From: Carcharhinus longimanus
Lineage: Eukaryota
Length of the DNA: 58,025 bases
Direction: 5' to 3'
Assembly (NCBI GenBank): GCA_030264375.1
Contig: JASCQW010000061.1
Coordinates: 123,105,175 to 123,163,199, forward strand
The notes under the pieces: model-generated
The model's input: only the letters and a program-made list of their open reading frames with translations
Told to the model about the DNA's origin: nothing
Database searches by the model: none
Part shown: one piece after another, positions 17,010 to 50,030 of the stretch
How the letters are laid out: every line of letters begins with the position of its first letter
How positions within the stretch are numbered: the stretch's first letter is position 1
Program-made: the position numbers and the translations under genes

Positions 17010-17059
17010 TTGATCAGAATCTTCCACCTGTGCCCGATTCCCTGTGACATCAGTGGGAA

Positions 17060-17191
17060 GTCTGACAACACCAGGTTTTAGTCCAACCGATTTATTCGAT
17101 AGTAAACTCACAAGCTTTCAAGGGGACTGAAACCTGGTGTTGTCAGACTTTTTACTGTGTTTACCCCCGTCCAACGCCGGCACATCCACAT
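17060..17191 (+). mobile_element. Penelope-like mini-insertion with inverted 5' terminus and exact 12-bp TSD
   Basis: catcagtgggaa at 17048-17059 and 17192-17203. Inverted arms 17058-17084 / 17124-17150. The 3' end ..tccaacgccggcacatccacatc is shared with 36135-36914. Confidence 0.88.
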
Positions 17192-18697
17192 CATCAGTGG
17201 GAAAACAGGCCGGTTTAGAACACATTTGGAACAACATGGTGTACGGAAGTCTGGACTCACCTGAACAATGCCTGGGGTTGTCTCTGGAGTTCGGGATGGA
17301 GACTGCCAGTAACCCTGGGTCGGGGAAGCATTTACATGCAGATGTTCCAGATCACAATGTCATCCAACAGGTCTATCTTCCGGCTCCAGAATGTTTCCAG
17401 ATATCCATCATCTTTTTCAGGAGGTCCATCTTGTTTTTTCAATGGGTGGGTCAGTAATGTTGGGCACCTTTTCAATATGGAGCTCAAATATGTTGGCAGG
17501 ATCCCCAACATGTCCATCCTGCCACGGAATACAGCAGTAAACCCCTGAATGCATAATTAATGAGGTCAGGAATGGGTGATACGGCATGATTTCATATCGA
17601 CCTTGGAGTCGGAAACACTCACCATTCTCAATCCCACTCTAGGATTTAATCTCAGATTGGAGAATTCCACCCACTGATTTTTTTCCACATCCACCAGGGT
17701 GGAACCCATTATTGTCATGGGTAATGTGTTCCAGTGTCATTACCACTCGTTGCATAAAAATGTTCTTCCTCACATTCCTTCTTTACCTCTTACCCATCAA
17801 ATCCCAGCTGCTTCTCTTTTGTTTTAAGAAGAACAGAAAACATTTTTAAAACATGTAATTGTGAAACTGATTGTTGTACACAAATGTAACTTATAAATGG
17901 TCCTATACAGTTTTTCAAAAAAAAAAATCAGTTAATAATGATCCAGTTCCCAGCAGTGAACAAGAAACTGATTAAAAAGGCACAGGTTAGGAATACAGTT
18001 CCACATCGCTACTGGAACCAGCAACACAGAAGCTGCAGAATATCTGCATGTGCAGTCCTTCCTTCATCACTTGTGTGATACCTCAAACTGCGAATATAGG
18101 CTGCCATGGACATGCTGTTGCTGCTTTGAATGTGGGCCCACTCACCAAATATGCCAAAAAGCCATTCTTGTGATCTGATGTATGTTCTTGAAACTTGGAT
18201 CACACGGGTCAGCTGAAGGCATGTGCCATCTGCTGACACAGCACCATGCACTCAGCTGCACAGGGGAACCCCAGCCCTCCCTCCCACTCCTCTTATATAA
18301 ATTCAGGTATCATCCTGAATGGAAGGTGATTCTACTAACTTATGTAATTGTAAAGTTTATGGAAGTGCAGTGTTTTTAGAGGTGTTGTGAATTTCCAGAT
18401 TTGCACAGGGAGGGCAGAGAATTTGGTGATATATTTTCACAAAGGCTGCAGTGGACATGGGGGCAATGATGGGAATATGAACACTGTGTGAGGGCAGCAG
18501 GTTTACGCTGCATGGAGCCACTACCATTCCCATGAGGCATGTAATGTGTTGGAGGACAGATTGCTGGAGCTTGGAGAGCCTGTATGGCAATGAGTATGAA
18601 TCTCATTACCTCTGTCTGAACTTGCACTGTAGCACTCAGACCCTGGGAGGTTTCTACCTGTGGTCACAGTGGAAGCTGCAGCTGCAGCTGTCAAACT

Positions 18698-35699: not shown

Positions 35700-37560
35700 A
35701 AATGGTGGTAGCAGCCTACCATCTCATAAGATGATGGTTTGCATTATCCTGGTCAACTCTGCATTAAGCATCACCTATATGGTGTCAGGTGCCCCACTCT
35801 GGCGTAACAATCTCTGCCACATTTGCTGTGGAGAAAGACAGTGACCTGGAAAGATGCAGTAATCACTGGCTCTGTTTTCTCTGAGTCCTCTCCTTGGTCA
35901 GCTGAGCTTTTTGTTTATGTTTGTCTCTTCCAATGCCCTTCCACTAAGCCTGTCTCTAGAAATTACAACTGTCAGTTATCTCCGAGTTGTGAGTGTCAAT
36001 GCCCATCACCTTCATTTCTTGTTTCAGGTGACCTTGTTACAGAAGTACGGATGTCAAAGAGGTTATGATCCAGGGACTCATCTACTTTACTGTCTTTGGA
36101 CCTAGACTGCCATCTATCTGTTGAATATGGCTAACAACACCAGGTTAAAGTCTAACAAGTTTACTCGGTAGCTTTTGGAACGCTGCCCCTTCATCATGTG
36201 AGTGGGAGTTTGNNNNNNNNNNNNNNNNNNNNNNNNNNNNNNNNNNNNNNNNNNNNNNNNNNNNNNNNNNNNNNNNNNNNNNNNNNNNNNNNNNNNNNNN
36301 NNNNNNNNNNNNCAGAGAAAGACGCCAAACTCAATTTGCAAAATAATGTTTGGAATACGAGTCTTTACAGGTAATCATTTCTTAAAGGTACAGGCAATGT
36401 GAGTGGAGAAAGGGTTAAACACAGGTTGAAGGGATGTGTATTGTCTCCAGACAGGACAGTCAGTGAGATTTTTCATGACACAGGACAGCGCAGAGTCGCT
36501 GAGCACAGACTGATAGCCAAGTTCCACACACATGAGGACGGCCTCAACCGGGACCTTGGGTTCATGTCACACTATCTGCAGCCTCCAAGCCTAGGCTTGC
36601 AAAACCTCACGAACTGTCCTGGCTGGAGACATTACGCATCTCTTTAACCTGTGCTTAACCCCCTCTCCATTCACATTGCCTGTAATTTTAAGATTTGATT
36701 ACCTGTAAAGACTCACATTGCAACCGCTATTTTTGTAAACTGTTTGTGTCTTTACATGCCCTGTTTGTGAACAAAACTCCTTCTCACCCGATGAAGGGGC
36801 AGTGCTTCGAAAGCTAGTGACTTGTGCTACCAAATAAACCTGTTGGGCTTTAACCTGGTGTTGTGAGACTTCTTACTGCGTTTACCCCAGTCCAACGCCA
36901 GCATCTCCACATCATGAACATGGCTAAGCCAGGGAAGATGTCATTGGTTTAGCAGTGAGTGTCTGTTGATGGAATTAGCACAATCCAGACTCATGAGTTG
37001 GTGACATTGTACTTCAAGAGATGCAAAGGATATGTCTGATACAGCAAAGGTGAAAATAGTTCAGCTTCTGTCTCTGGCCTAACATACATGTTTTCCAGGT
37101 CTCCCCACTGTGGAGGCACTGAGCAGGCAGGCTTCGTAGAGTTGCTGTTTATTATTTTCAGTCAGGTTGCTGTTTCTCCACACTTTCCTACTCAGTTTGA
37201 ACATAACAGCAGCAGCTTTTGAGGTGTGTGTGTTGATTTCAACAGCAGGTGACAGATTTCTGGTGACTGTGGAACCTAGATATGTGAAGCTATCAACAGT
37301 CTCAACTTTCACATTGTCAATGCTGATCGCTGGCAATATGGCAACATCCTGGACCACCAATCTAATAGTCAACTCAAACTCTTTGCAGATGTGAGAGGGT
37401 GTGTCCGTTTGCTGCTGAATGGAATGTTAGTGCAGCATCACCAATGCACAACAATACTCTGATGAGGAAGTTACACATTTTTTTCCTGGATTTCAGGCAA
37501 GGTGAGACTGAGTAACTTTTCGTCAGTTCTAGCATGTGCTAGAATTGTTCTCACACAAGT
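35700..37560 (-). mobile_element. RTE-clade LINE (RT C-terminus to 3' end), interrupted by a Penelope element
   Basis: PAISIDNVKVETVDSFTYLGSTVT..EINTHTSKAAAVMFKLSRKVW (37079-37372); KLNYFHLCCIRHILCIS (~37015-37070); EMKVMGIDTHN (~35990-36020); C-terminal zinc-finger remnant SKCGRDCYARVG (~35790-35828). Confidence 0.88.
36135..36914 (+). mobile_element. 5'-truncated Penelope-like element with inverted 5' pseudo-LTR and 13-bp TSD
   Basis: TSD tgaatatggctaa (36122-36134) / tgaacatggctaa (36915-36927). 36135-36473 is reverse-complementary to ~36600-36864. GIY-YIG C-terminal remnant QRRVAEHRLIAKFHTHEDGLNRDLGFMSHY. Mutated hammerhead CAC-CCGATGA-AGGGGCAGTGCTTC-GAAA-GCTA-GTG at ~36785-36819. Confidence 0.92.
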
Positions 37561-45085: not shown

Positions 45086-46948
45086 CAATGACTATCCCCA
45101 TATCTGAGAAAATGTGCACAGGAAGATGGTACTTCTTAAAACAGCTGTCTATGTGGGCCTTTTCACGGTCACCATGTGTCAGTTTTACAGACAGGGATAA
45201 CAGAGAAATGAAAGCACTTCTCTCTTCCTTTACTGTTCCTAAATAGGGTGTTTTTAATTTCACTCTTGGAATATGGTCATGGCTGGTGAGGCCAGCATTT
45301 ATTGTTCATCGCCAATTACCCTGAGAAGGTGGTAGTGGGTTTTCTTCTTAAACTACTGCAGTCCATGCAGTGTAGGTGTATCCACAGTGCTATTAATGGA
45401 GCTCTAGGGTTTTGACCCAGTGACGGTGAAAGAGCGGCGATAGATTTCCAAGTCAGAATGGTGAGTGGTTTGGAAGGGAACTTCCAGCTGATGATGCTCC
45501 CACATATCTGCTACCTTTGTCCTTCCAGATGGTAGTAGCATTGTGTTTTTCAGCCCATGCTCTCTGTCTTCTGGAATGGCGCTACGTGCTCAAATTCCAG
45601 AAAGAGTAGGAATACGCAATTCGCCCTTACAAGTTTCCAAGTTCTGATCTTCTAGTCCTCTCACCAGCAGAGTAGTGTGAAGTATGCCACAAGATCCCAG
45701 GAAACTCATTTTAATATTTTGCCATGTCATTAGCAAGAACCCTGTCTGGCACGTCCTGCCTCACCGGGTATTCAGTGGGTGCCAGTGTGATGTTATGCTG
45801 GCGCCATTTACAACATTACTGTGAACTTGGCACCTCCGAGCAGGAAATTAGAGATGACCAATCAAGCAGCCATCAATCTCCGGGGTGATCACTGCTCGGG
45901 GGCACCGGAGAGAAAGCAGGAGACACAGTTAAATGGAACTCAGGGCTCGGAGTGGGCATCCCAGAATCATCATATCAGGGGCTGGAGTCCAGGGGGTCAC
46001 TTACAAGCCTTATTGTTCCTTCATAGCAGGGTGTCCTTTGCTTTGAAGGAGTTGTGAAGGCTGGTATCTTGGCAGTGCTTCCCATGTCTCCATCCTGGGT
46101 TGCTGTCCATTTTGCAGCTGATGGAGTGCCCTTCTTTGCTGGGGGCTGGCCAATGGGAGGGCTTGAAAATAAGGGGTTCAGCACTGGGAGTGACTGTGAG
46201 TTACTCGGATGGGATCTTATGAGAGGATGCACTGTCAGAGCACAGTAAGAGAATCAGGCATGGGCTACATCCCTCCTCAGGCAGCCTGAAGGTCTTCGCC
46301 CTCAGGGGAGGATGACTGCAGTGTGATTGGAAGCCACACTTAGGCAGTAGTGTGGGGACAAAGGGGAGATGATGCCCAGAAGTCCAAAACCAATTGTCAG
46401 AGCGGCTTGTGTGTAACGGTAGATCTCAGTGGCTGCTCAGCTCTGAACCTCTTGTGACCTGGGAGAAACAGCGTGCCCTCTGGGAATGTGCTGGACATGG
46501 TAATTGCTGGCCTCACAAGATTCAGCTGTGCCTTGTCTGCCGCAAGAGGCAGAACTCCCTGGTGTCCCCTCACTAATGTTTATACCAATAAATGCTGTGC
46601 AGTTACAAAGCCCTGTCATTTAATGGAGGTTACCTTTTAACCCTTGTAAGTCCATGTCCCAGCCATTGAGCTGACATTCCCAGGAAGGCGGAAACATCAC
46701 ACAGGTAACACTGATATGCTTCCTCTGCAAGGTGTGACGGTGACATCTATCATTGTACACCCCAGTGGAGGGCATGACAGGGTGCACCGCAATGTGCCCC
46801 ATCAGGATGCAAACACTGGTCACATGCAGTCACTCAACTGCTCCTTAATGCAACGATGTGAAGATGCCGGCATTGGACTGGGGTAAACATAGTAAGAAGT
46901 CTCATAACACCAGGTTAGAGTCCAACAGGTTTATTTGGTAGTAAACAC

Positions 46949-46983
46949 CACTAGCTTTCGGAACGCTGTTCCTTCGTCAGGTG
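46949..46983 (-). ncRNA. Minimal type I hammerhead ribozyme motif, core intact
   Basis: CAC CUGACGA A GGAAC-AGC-GUUCC GAA AGCU A GUG: conserved CUGANGA/GAAA/UH, 5-bp stem II, 3-bp stem I and palindromic AGCU stem III, as known for Penelope hammerheads. Activity not shown. Confidence 0.85.
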
Positions 46984-47019
46984 AGTGGAAAGTGGAGAGT
47001 GTGATCAGAACTCTCCACT

Positions 47020-47054
47020 CACCTGACGAAGGAACACCATTCCGAAAGCTAGTG
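47020..47054 (+). ncRNA. Minimal type I hammerhead ribozyme motif, core intact
   Basis: CAC CUGACGA A GGAA-CACCA-UUCC GAA AGCU A GUG; predicted cleavage after A47051. Activity not shown. Confidence 0.82.
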
Positions 47055-47529
47055 GCATTTATTACCAAATAAACCTGTTGGACTCTAACCTGGTGTTATG
47101 AGACTTCTTACCCTAATGTGATACCAGGTTTCTTGGGGGGTTGCAGGGGGCTCAGGGAATGTGGGTGTTTGGTGCCACTGAAACTCTGGTGGGTCCACGC
47201 ATTGCACCCTGCTTTGACAGGGACCAATGTGGAGATGTGGCTATAGTGTCCGATTGGAGGGTATGAGGGAAGGCGTTGAGACACTATTCTTCATTGGGTG
47301 ATAGTCCTGGAGTTTGACAGAGGAGGGTCGGAACTCTCTCACAAACCCTTGTAGCTCATTATGGTTTTCTCTTCTTTACAGTGCATGTCTAGAGGATCAT
47401 GGAGTTGGCTATCCCACTTATTACCACAAAGCGCAGCAGAGACACCGACATACCATGGCACCTGGCCAGAACCAGTACCTCACAGAGGTGAGAGAAGCTG
47501 GGCCTATCACTGTTCCAAGAGCAGTGCCA

Positions 47530-48190
47530 CAGATGTGTGGGTACGGGGTGAGGTTATTCCCATGCCATTCATTGTACCTTCAAATGTACAAGATCAGTGC
47601 CATAGAAGCTACATCTATCCTGCGGGTTGGTAGACCATTTCTGCTAAATCCTGCAAGAGCTGTCACCACATGGAATGGGGGCACCCATTGCCTGTAGCCC
47701 TTGAGCACATAGCTGCTCTGAACTTCAATGTGAGTGGCTTATTCCAGGGCAGCATAGGCAACCTGTGTGGCATTTCCCCATCGGCCTCACAGATGGACAC
47801 AGATGCCCTTTATGCAAGGGTTTGCATGCATTTCAACTTGGACAAGGACCAGATGATCCAAGATGCCAGTCTCACATGCTTCACCTGCTTAGCAGGCATG
47901 CCCAGAGGCAAGGTTTGATTGACTGCACCCACGTTGCCCTTTGCGCTCTAGGCTGCCACACAGTATCATTCATAAACCATAAGGGATACACCCTGTCAGT
48001 ATGCGGTTGGCTGTGATGCGCTTCTTGCTGGTGTGTATCCATTTCCTGGGGAGCATCTATGACAGCTACATCTTGAGGCACTTGCAGTTCCTACCCACCT
48101 TTGAGGGAGAGCAGCAACTGGAGAGATGTCTCCTCAGAGACAAGGGGTACTCACTCAGGAGGTGGCTGATGATACCAATGCAGAGGTCAC
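47530..48190 (+). pseudogene. Decayed Harbinger (HARBI1-like, DDE_Tnp_4) transposase
   Basis: LPVALEHIAALNFNVSGLFQGSIGNLCGISPS; LAGMP..QGLIDCTHVAL (DCTH 47921-47932); FINHKGY; GSIYDSYIL (48049-48075); LLRDKGYSLRRWLMIP (DKGY 48139-48150). Frameshifted, and cut off by a CR1 tail at ~48200-48305. The element probably extends left to ~45540. Confidence 0.93.
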
Positions 48191-48779
48191 AAAAAGTGTG
48201 TATAAGAGGCATTGAAGTGTCTGATCAGCTATGATCATATTGAATAGTGGAGCAGGCTCGACGGCTTGAATGGCCTACTTCTGTTCCCAGTTCCTATTTC
48301 CTCCTAGCTGTCTCTGAACCCTTGGAAACAGCAACTCATGTTTCCCCTTATGACTATGATATCTAGTCTCTTGAATCACTTGATTGAATCAGTTCTGAAT
48401 TCTTTGTGGCTTTAGTGCTCTTTCTATAATGGGGTGTCCAAAAGTACTCAAACTAACTATTTATATAAATTCACAATTCCTTTCTCTTTCTTATACTTTG
48501 TGCCCCTTTTTTGAAAACCCATTATTCCATTGTTAACTTCAGCCGTTTACAGTGTTCCTCAGGAGCTTTTGCAGGTCATCTCCCACAGTAAAAGCGATGC
48601 TTGGGAGATTCTAGTGAAATAACTGGTAATGGGGTCTGTTTGTTTAGAATTTTCATGAACATATTTATTATACTGTTGAGTGAGTCTTAAGGTGTTCCAC
48701 TTCCCTTCTTCATGCAGCAACTCTAGGAAGTTTACAAATAGACTTTTGATAGTGCAGAACTTGTGTATTGCTGAAAAAA

Positions 48780-50030
48780 GACACATGTTGAAGTTTTTCA
48801 TCTTGCACTCATCAGGGCAATCACAAGAATACCAATGTTAGGGGAAACAACAACTTTATACTGTATGGGAAAAAGATGCTGATTGGTTGTCAAGTGACCC
48901 CTGATTTGTCAGAGTTTTGCCATGGAGAAAACACCGGTTAATGGTAACTAACACTTAATGGCCAAAAATTGTTTGAATAAGGCTATCACTTTCAATCCTA
49001 AAAAAGTGCCCAGTCTACCTCAGATTGCTCTGAAAGGGCATGGTATCTCAAAATTTGAGCAACAGATGGAGTTAGCTGTTTCACACTGCTCTCATGCAGT
49101 GGCAACACGAGTGGCATTCACCATTATAGGATGCTGCCATCAAGCCAAAAAGACTTTCTTCCTATCACACAAATTAGTACTGTGGTACATGAATTTCAGT
49201 ACCAGTACGATGCTAGATATGTACACCATACATCATAAAGACTGGCAAAACACATCAAACAGATACTCCTTCCACTGTTCACAATGAGCAGACCGATTCC
49301 CAACCAGCTTGTGCTTGCAAAACTCAAAAAAGTATTCAACATTTGACATGATTCTGTGACAAGAAAGCATTTTCTAAATAATCCTCAGTGTGCTAGAAAT
49401 TACACTGACAACAATTTAAGCTGCATTTTCATGTCTTGGAAGCAATATATATTAATACACAGGACCCACTCTTTGCAGACAGAAAGAACATATACACATA
49501 TTGCACCTATTTCAGTTAAACAAAATAAGTGATAGGTATTCGTTGGTTCATTCCTCAGGGCAATGCCATGGCCAAAGTCAAGCTGCCTGGCTTAAATTTC
49601 AAACCATGTTAACTGTCAGTCACTATTAACTGATGCATTGTCCAGTATAAAGTTATTGTTTCTCCTGCCATTGGTATTCTTGTGATTATCCTGATGGGAT
49701 GGCATGGTGGCACAGTGGTTAACACTACTGTCTCACAGTGCCAGGGACCTGCCCTGGGTTTGATTCCCTGCTTGGGTCACTATCTATGTGGAGTCTGCAC
49801 AATCTCTCCGTGTCTGCATGGGCTTTCTCCAGGTGCTCCAGTTTCCTCCCACAGTCGGGAAGACGTGCTGGTTAGCTGCATTGGCCATGCTAAATTCTCC
49901 CTCAGTGTACCCAAACAGATGCCAGGGTGTGGTGATTTTCACAGTAACTTCATTGCAGTGTTAGCGTAAGCCTACTTGTGACACTAATAAATAAGCTTAA
50001 ACTGAGCACAAGATGAAAAGCTTTGGTAAA
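48780..50030 (+). mobile_element. Second Penelope-like family: inverted 5' pseudo-LTR, GIY-YIG endonuclease remnant, 3' pseudo-LTR split by HE1
   Basis: ISKFEQQMELAVSHC..VATRVAFT, RMLPSSQKDFLP..STVVHEFQYQYDARYVHHTS*RLAKHIKQ (VVY..C..YVG.T..L..RI.QH pattern), HFLNNPQCARNY, VLEAIYINTQDP..LCRQKE. 48786-48865 is reverse-complementary to 49642-49696 plus 50003-50029. Hammerhead-like CTGATGA..GAAA in both termini. Confidence 0.88.
49697..50002 (+). mobile_element. HE1-type V-SINE (alternative tail B)
   Basis: Full head; tail ttttcacagtaacttcattgcagtgttagcgtaagcctacttgtgacactaataaataa. Confidence 0.93.

Follow-up and report, generated by a model that had tools for sequence, protein, structure and literature searches.

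A hammerhead-bearing hairpin in Carcharhinus longimanus as a probable head-to-head insertion of two truncated Penelope-like element ends

Main finding

The hairpin at positions 46855-47111 of the window (the whole 58,025-nucleotide stretch of C. longimanus contig JASCQW010000061.1 that was analyzed here) is most probably, with a probability of roughly 0.85, a single dead insertion in which two 5'-truncated 3' ends of a Penelope-like element (PLE) lie head to head, likely made by priming from both ends of a DNA break. Its arms stop at two fixed 3' ends and are not nested in each other, a target duplication of its own flanks the insertion, whose junction is unique, and longer copies of the family carry a reverse transcriptase (RT) and a GIY-YIG endonuclease (EN). 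The hairpin is an ordinary member of an already described layout and not a new self-spreading element.

Structure of the hairpin locus

An inverted-repeat search returned 102-nt arms (46892-46993 and 47010-47111) that are 94% complementary and separated by a 16-nt spacer, in agreement with the near-perfect inverted arms of about 100 bp and short loop described in a first-pass annotation of the sequence. The fold has a z-score of -23.6, and 0 of 200 shuffles were equally stable. The hairpin is asymmetric, with a 37-nt tail (46855-46891) on the left arm only. Where the arms meet, the innermost ~10 nt of the left arm represent a short templated duplication, and the right arm includes upstream element sequence that is absent from the left. 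The features are as follows, with arm limits given relative to C3 of the hammerhead.

46500-48234 (limits approximate), plus strand: host, a decayed DNA transposon fragment of Harbinger/PIF type, uninterrupted at the empty site in its paralogues
46844-46853, plus strand: target-site duplication, left copy, about 10 bp, from an empty-site alignment of 11 paralogous host-repeat copies
46855-46999, minus strand: left arm, 5'-truncated 3' end of a Penelope-like element with tail, about -8 to +126
46855-46891, minus strand: 37-nt "tail" between the two fixed family 3' ends (about +89 and about +126; bimodal 3' ends)
46949-46983, minus strand: minimal type I hammerhead core with a 5-bp stem II, the commonest family form
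46984-47009, no strand: unique head-to-head junction and loop, single genome match at up to 2 mismatches
47000-47111, plus strand: right arm, 5'-truncated 3' end without tail, -23 to +89
47020-47054, plus strand: minimal type I hammerhead core, stem II of 4 bp after CpG decay
47112-47121, plus strand: target-site duplication, right copy, from the same alignment of 11 copies

Hammerhead cores

The presence of a complete minimal hammerhead on each strand (46949-46983, minus; 47020-47054, plus) was confirmed. In both, a stem I of 3-4 bp and CUGACGA are followed by a single bulged A, by stem II and then by GAAA, with the 4-nt palindrome AGCU ahead of the cut site, and both thus show the conserved core, bulged base and palindromic stem III of minimal type I hammerheads. 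They match the account of metazoan PLE hammerheads (min-HHRs) in the accessible part of PMC4209133, with which they share the bulged base between 9 and 10.1, G10.1-C11.1, the palindromic 15.2-16.2 and the short helix I. Dual min-HHRs on opposite strands are also reported there, with dispersed motifs ascribed to truncated PLEs; the published pairs lie 100-700 bp apart and have a stem II of 7-8 bp, whereas the window cores are ~40 nt apart with a stem II of 4-5 bp. An Rfam search of the window returned no hammerhead family at the gathering cut-off or at E<=10, and the matches at E<=10 were only to generic miRNA hairpins and other weak ones far below cut-off.

The retained CpGs pointed out in the first-pass annotation are present (2 of 4 and 3 of 4 in the two arms), but carry no weight as a sign of function, being close to the mean of 1.98 over 52 arms. 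The claim that stem II pairing survives sequence differences did not hold, as these differences are not compensatory: the plus-strand arm has lost the closing C-G pair through a CpG transition and carries one loop change. Across the family the closing pair is C-G in 61 arms and C-A in 14, the latter being the commonest defect at that position. The core was found in 101 parsed family arms. Stem II covariation (at pair 4, for example, G-C in 42 and A-T in 27) lies among family forms, and so testifies to selection that acted on earlier source elements and not on the window copy.

Family of origin and published relatives

A 19-mer from the arms has 33,911 exact matches in the 2.68-Gb genome, and the window itself carries three more loci of the same Penelope-like family. 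Upstream of the same 3' end, longer copies carry an RT, a C-x4-C-x2-C linker (seen in L054, L130 and L137-L139) and a GIY-YIG endonuclease. In L130 the RVT_1 match (E 2e-4) lies below the curated cut-off and the GIY-YIG match (E 7e-5) above it, and L054 and L038 connect the endonuclease and the RT thumb to the hammerhead end. A CX2-5CxxC linker between RT and EN is given in PMC8557442, in the part available, as a Neptune feature common to Nematis too. Judged from these domains, the family is an endonuclease-bearing (EN+) PLE, of Neptune type by its linker alone. The proposed Penelope origin and min-HHR identity are thus supported by the RT, the Cys linker and the upstream GIY-YIG together with the match to PMC4209133. 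No intact full-length element was recovered among the copies examined; a 1053-aa "frame" and similar long open frames were rejected as such an element, being N assembly gaps.

The layout of the hairpin also has published counterparts, and the suggestion that it could be a little-described system was not upheld, since min-HHR pairs on opposite strands have been published, and so have inverted truncated copies whose tail is one-sided. As set out in the accessible parts of PMC8557442 and PMC3846280, EN+ PLEs form inverted-pLTR insertions in which an inverted 5'-truncated copy is joined at its 5' end, with a one-sided tail of 30-40 bp, a target duplication of 8-10 bp and a hammerhead in the pLTR. 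Layout, tail, duplication and pLTR hammerhead are all common to the window, and the family as a whole shows RT followed by GIY-YIG, the pLTR hammerhead, the inverted truncated copy, the one-sided tail and a short, variable duplication. The window is an extreme case of these published insertions, with both copies cut to 110-135 nt, so that no open reading frame lies between them and the insertion is only a hairpin. A literature search that covered few subscription journals found no report on inverted Neptune-type Penelope insertions in sharks.

Other family copies vary in scale. L137-L139 have the same inverted layout at 0.4-2 kb, around endonuclease sequence. A second, shorter head-to-head insertion of the family lies at 17047-17192 of the window, with a 12-bp target duplication and no full hammerhead in either arm, which indicates that arm lengths are arbitrary. 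Two further family arms (36136-36210 and 36766-36913) face outward across an assembly gap and are possibly one larger inverted insertion. L117 and L118 have in common an upstream sequence unlike the family 3' UTR, joined just before the hammerhead and ~93 nt upstream of the probe; a chimeric subfamily would explain this, or else a target that was used repeatedly.

Insertion site

The insertion splits a repeat whose paralogues run uninterrupted over the site. This host repeat contains a DDE_Tnp_4 match at 47983-48231 (E 1.3e-05), and the Harbinger/PIF-type fragment (46500-48234) has at least 40 paralogues at 72-78% identity. The two copies of the ~10-bp target duplication (46844-46853 and 47112-47121) are identical at 7 of 10 positions, and two of the three mismatches are CA versus TG, the two outcomes of CpG decay. 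Target duplications scored >=8 in 13 of 24 hairpins versus 5 of 552 mismatched control pairs (24 of 27 hairpins entered the test; three were dropped for gaps or unclear ends), and the window's own duplication, so decayed that it scores just 5 when tested blind, is supported by the alignment of paralogues. The target duplication and the unique junction mark the hairpin as an independent insertion event. Farther along the window, two 54-nt inverted repeats (48810-48863 and 49643-49696) with 89% complementarity and a spacing of 779 nt may mark the termini of a non-autonomous DNA transposon.

Junctions and arm pairs across the genome

The first-pass annotation raised the possibility of a non-autonomous MITE-like or retrozyme-like hairpin, transcribed and re-inserted whole, and proposed a search for copies of the loop junction, with a unique junction counting against it. 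A junction 30-mer has 1 match in 2.68 Gb at <=2 mismatches. The 26 look-alike hairpins carry other junctions, and with the window included 27 of 27 junctions differ; these came from a whole-hairpin search in which 40 of 7,880 candidates were scored and 26 of the 39 other loci examined, a set biased to window-like copies.

Two samples of arms were additionally drawn. The first 100 of the 33,911 19-mer matches, in order of position, gave 93 loci from one chromosome end, comprising 40 inverted, 32 solo, 17 at a gap and 4 long copies; 13 were window-like double-core hairpins. The first 100 of 604 matches of a 48-mer, likewise position-ordered, gave 97 loci. After both were remapped together and two duplicate loci dropped, inverted pairs made up 38 of 91 and 35 of 97 loci, or 73 of 188 overall. 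These 73 pairs have 71 distinct start pairs, and the two coincident pairs differ in junction sequence. Arm lengths form a continuum from the tail only up to kilobases. Of the 97 young copies L167-L263, 30 have an assembly gap directly at the 5' end, and the counts of inverted pairs are therefore probably too low.

A MITE would be expected to show one internal junction and one duplication length in many copies, and the junction, duplication and start-pair counts reveal no such pattern. Non-LTR retrozymes, according to the available parts of PMC7229834 and bioRxiv 10.64898/2026.07.22.740005, are head-to-tail tandem units giving circular RNA. The hairpin resembles them in being small, non-coding, hammerhead-bearing and PLE-related, but it consists of a lone inverted pair whose junction is unique, and no tandem unit was found within 44-50 kb. 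The 13 of 93 loci with window-like hairpins speak for a mobile hairpin, as does the clustering of 5' ends near the hammerhead, which makes many copies look alike. Besides the unique junction, the disagreement of all 27 junctions and the continuous arm lengths, the hairpin's spread as a unit is opposed by target duplications that vary from ~9 to 14 bp, copies that are inverted and not tandem, cores that are degenerate and not canonical, and the lack of an A-to-G scar. This reading is largely refuted, and we regard it as the least probable of those considered.

Two 3' ends and the formation of the insertion

The 3' ends of the family are bimodal, near +89 and +126, and the same two ends accumulate in contigs of other organisms (949 contigs at 46855 and 894 at 46891 in run X11). 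The tail could be classified in 47 of the 73 pairs: one arm has it in 41, neither in 6 and both in 0, against expectations of 23.1, 14.9 and 8.9, respectively (p ~1e-7). This excess of one-sided tails indicates that the two arm-forming events were coupled. The 41 one-tail pairs comprise 19 that are non-nested, in which the tail-less arm extends farther at the 5' end, 10 nested pairs and 12 whose arms match in extent to within 7 nt; the non-nested share is inflated because the sampled arm had to contain the probe. The window hairpin is non-nested (-23 to +89 versus -8 to +126), and in such pairs neither arm can have been copied from the other.

Two non-CpG changes are common to both window arms, and the 31-mer that contains them has 11 genome matches, of which 2 are the window arms. 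A source subfamily with these changes was considered and rejected, as the 9 other matches span different family forms. L148, L151 and L153 have a visible inverted partner without the two changes, and L154 might be a sister copy. Over 26 hairpins (one having been dropped for N), arms share 18 non-CpG changes versus 4.3 by permutation and 16 CpG changes versus ~12; in the unbiased 73 pairs, non-CpG sharing is 68 versus 11.8, part of which is plain subfamily structure. The pattern agrees better with a shared template than with later gene conversion, which could account for part of the sharing.

A biochemical precedent comes from PAc, a Poseidon PLE of Anolis, for which PMC11167929 describes how both strands are cut and extended in vitro from a pair of neighboring internal RT start sites that bound the tail and lie ~110-150 nt from the hammerhead, with uncleaved RNA as the template. 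On the present reading, the window family would resemble PAc in the paired start sites around the tail, the cutting and extension of both strands and the uncleaved template. Against this stands the fact that the biochemistry is from another clade, the window family having the Cys linker; in the part of PMC11167929 drawn on, head-to-head insertions are not derived from two-ended priming.

On this model, the element's enzyme would cut both strands ~10 bases apart, and a cDNA would be started from each DNA end of the staggered break. The two fixed 3' ends would correspond to two internal RT start sites, and both cDNAs, one per start site, would be copied from one RNA or one source copy, end just upstream of the hammerhead and be joined at these ends, a small templated duplication arising in the process. 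The presence of two hammerheads per hairpin follows from geometry, as the motif lies only ~90-126 nt from the RT start sites.

In the alternative put forward for head-to-head pLTR palindromes (PMC3846280), the second arm is a self-primed copy, made after folding back of the first cDNA or else of an antisense template; the element and its dead status would be the same. The rare variants common to both arms are compatible with this, as are the 22 of 41 pairs that are nested or equal. A fold-back copy must lie inside the first arm, yet each window arm has element sequence of its own, as in 19 of the 41 pairs, and folding back gives no reason for a tail-less arm to end at the fixed inner 3' end. 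We consider fold-back unlikely, if the strongest of the competing explanations.

Two-ended priming is familiar from L1 twin priming, in which two primers from one staggered break produce an inversion with a target duplication and microhomology joins, and in which the inverted part is upstream sequence. The window insertion would work alike, except that the fixed sites from which its two primers start both lie close to one and the same end, and a single region is therefore copied two times, unlike in L1. At L032 (~1820-1935, approximate), the inverted partner is upstream element sequence only, without a 3' end, a geometry like L1-type twin priming and unlike a duplicated end.

5' ends and the template RNA

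Of the 5' ends that fall within -30 to +36, 17 of 64 in one sample and 11 of 60 in the other lie in a peak at -7 to -5. The peak sits 30 nt after a TATA-like element and at what we take to be an initiator-like site, which suggests run-off at the transcript start. Many cDNAs would then run off a transcript whose start lies ~6 nt upstream of the hammerhead core and 30 nt past the TATA-like element. PMC3846280 describes a comparable arrangement of TATA and Inr. Several points count against run-off: the window right arm reaches -23, alignment artefacts may lie behind some of the -7 calls, PMC2377424 describes a TATA-less promoter in D. virilis, and a cap-derived G before the peak showed no excess (10 of 28 versus 56 of 160, p 1.0).

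At the ribozyme cut site there was no excess of 5' ends in either sample (2 of 64 and 3 of 60). Hammerhead-cut RNA was rejected as the template for this reason, and the absence of a peak is in line with uncleaved RNA in that role.

Folding, conservation and transcripts

Whichever direction the hairpin is transcribed in, the antisense arm is made first. The hairpin folds at -182 and -186 kcal/mol in the two directions versus -5.0 and -7.5 for the monomer hammerhead, and the core is predicted to be unpaired with a probability <0.001 in both transcripts. By these predictions the window copy, if transcribed, would form a long duplex without an active ribozyme; a lone min-HHR in any case needs a dimer to cleave (PMC4209133, available part). 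Of the earlier idea of a self-silencing ribozyme, the pairing of the core with its antisense arm stands, as a by-product only.

In a relative (organism E), contigs at single-copy depth span the junction, so the insertion predates the split. They differ from the window at 6 of 109 (cores) and 5 of 91 positions, and at 7 of 134 in the right flank, a divergence of ~5% in hairpin and flank alike. The hairpin shows no extra conservation over its flank in these three short contigs from one sample, with which weak selection is compatible. An A-to-G editing scar was seen neither in the window DNA (1 versus 1) nor as a clear case among 100 inverted loci (sums 143 versus 135). Two presumed-RNA runs cover family sequence and next to none of the flanks, which says nothing on the window locus.

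These observations bear on co-option of the PLE stump as a functional double-stranded RNA, whether small-RNA source, ADAR substrate or ribozyme switch. The duplex is very stable, the hairpin is kept in the relative, both cores are intact here and in only 8 of the 27 look-alike loci, and rotifer PLE copies give small RNAs (PMC3846280, in its accessible part). Set against this are a hairpin divergence equal to that of the flank, changes that are mostly CpG-type decay, a location inside a decayed DNA transposon and the likely existence of thousands of equivalents, and we consider co-option very improbable.

Significance

The locus itself matters little, being one among probably thousands of such hairpins in the genome, a figure that is a rough extrapolation from 13 of 93 sampled loci at one chromosome end to ~34,000 matches. 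As a class, the stumps offer countable evidence on the origin of PLE inverted pLTRs and one-sided tails. Their value lies in the mechanistic counts, tail pairing and non-nesting, which favor priming from both break ends over fold-back. We tentatively suggest, at somewhat less than even odds, that they are a genome-wide record of an undescribed PLE integration route in which a dimeric RT-EN, using the two RT start sites of one RNA, would prime both strands at a staggered break, with cDNA run-off. The two-ended model was found stated nowhere in a literature search from which subscription journals were mostly outside, and supplements could bear on the point. If true, one model would account for the one-sided tail, the inverted pLTR and the abundant hammerhead-centered hairpins, and would replace self-priming. 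Additionally, the stumps, if transcribed, could supply long double-stranded RNA in quantity, in the manner of inverted Alus.
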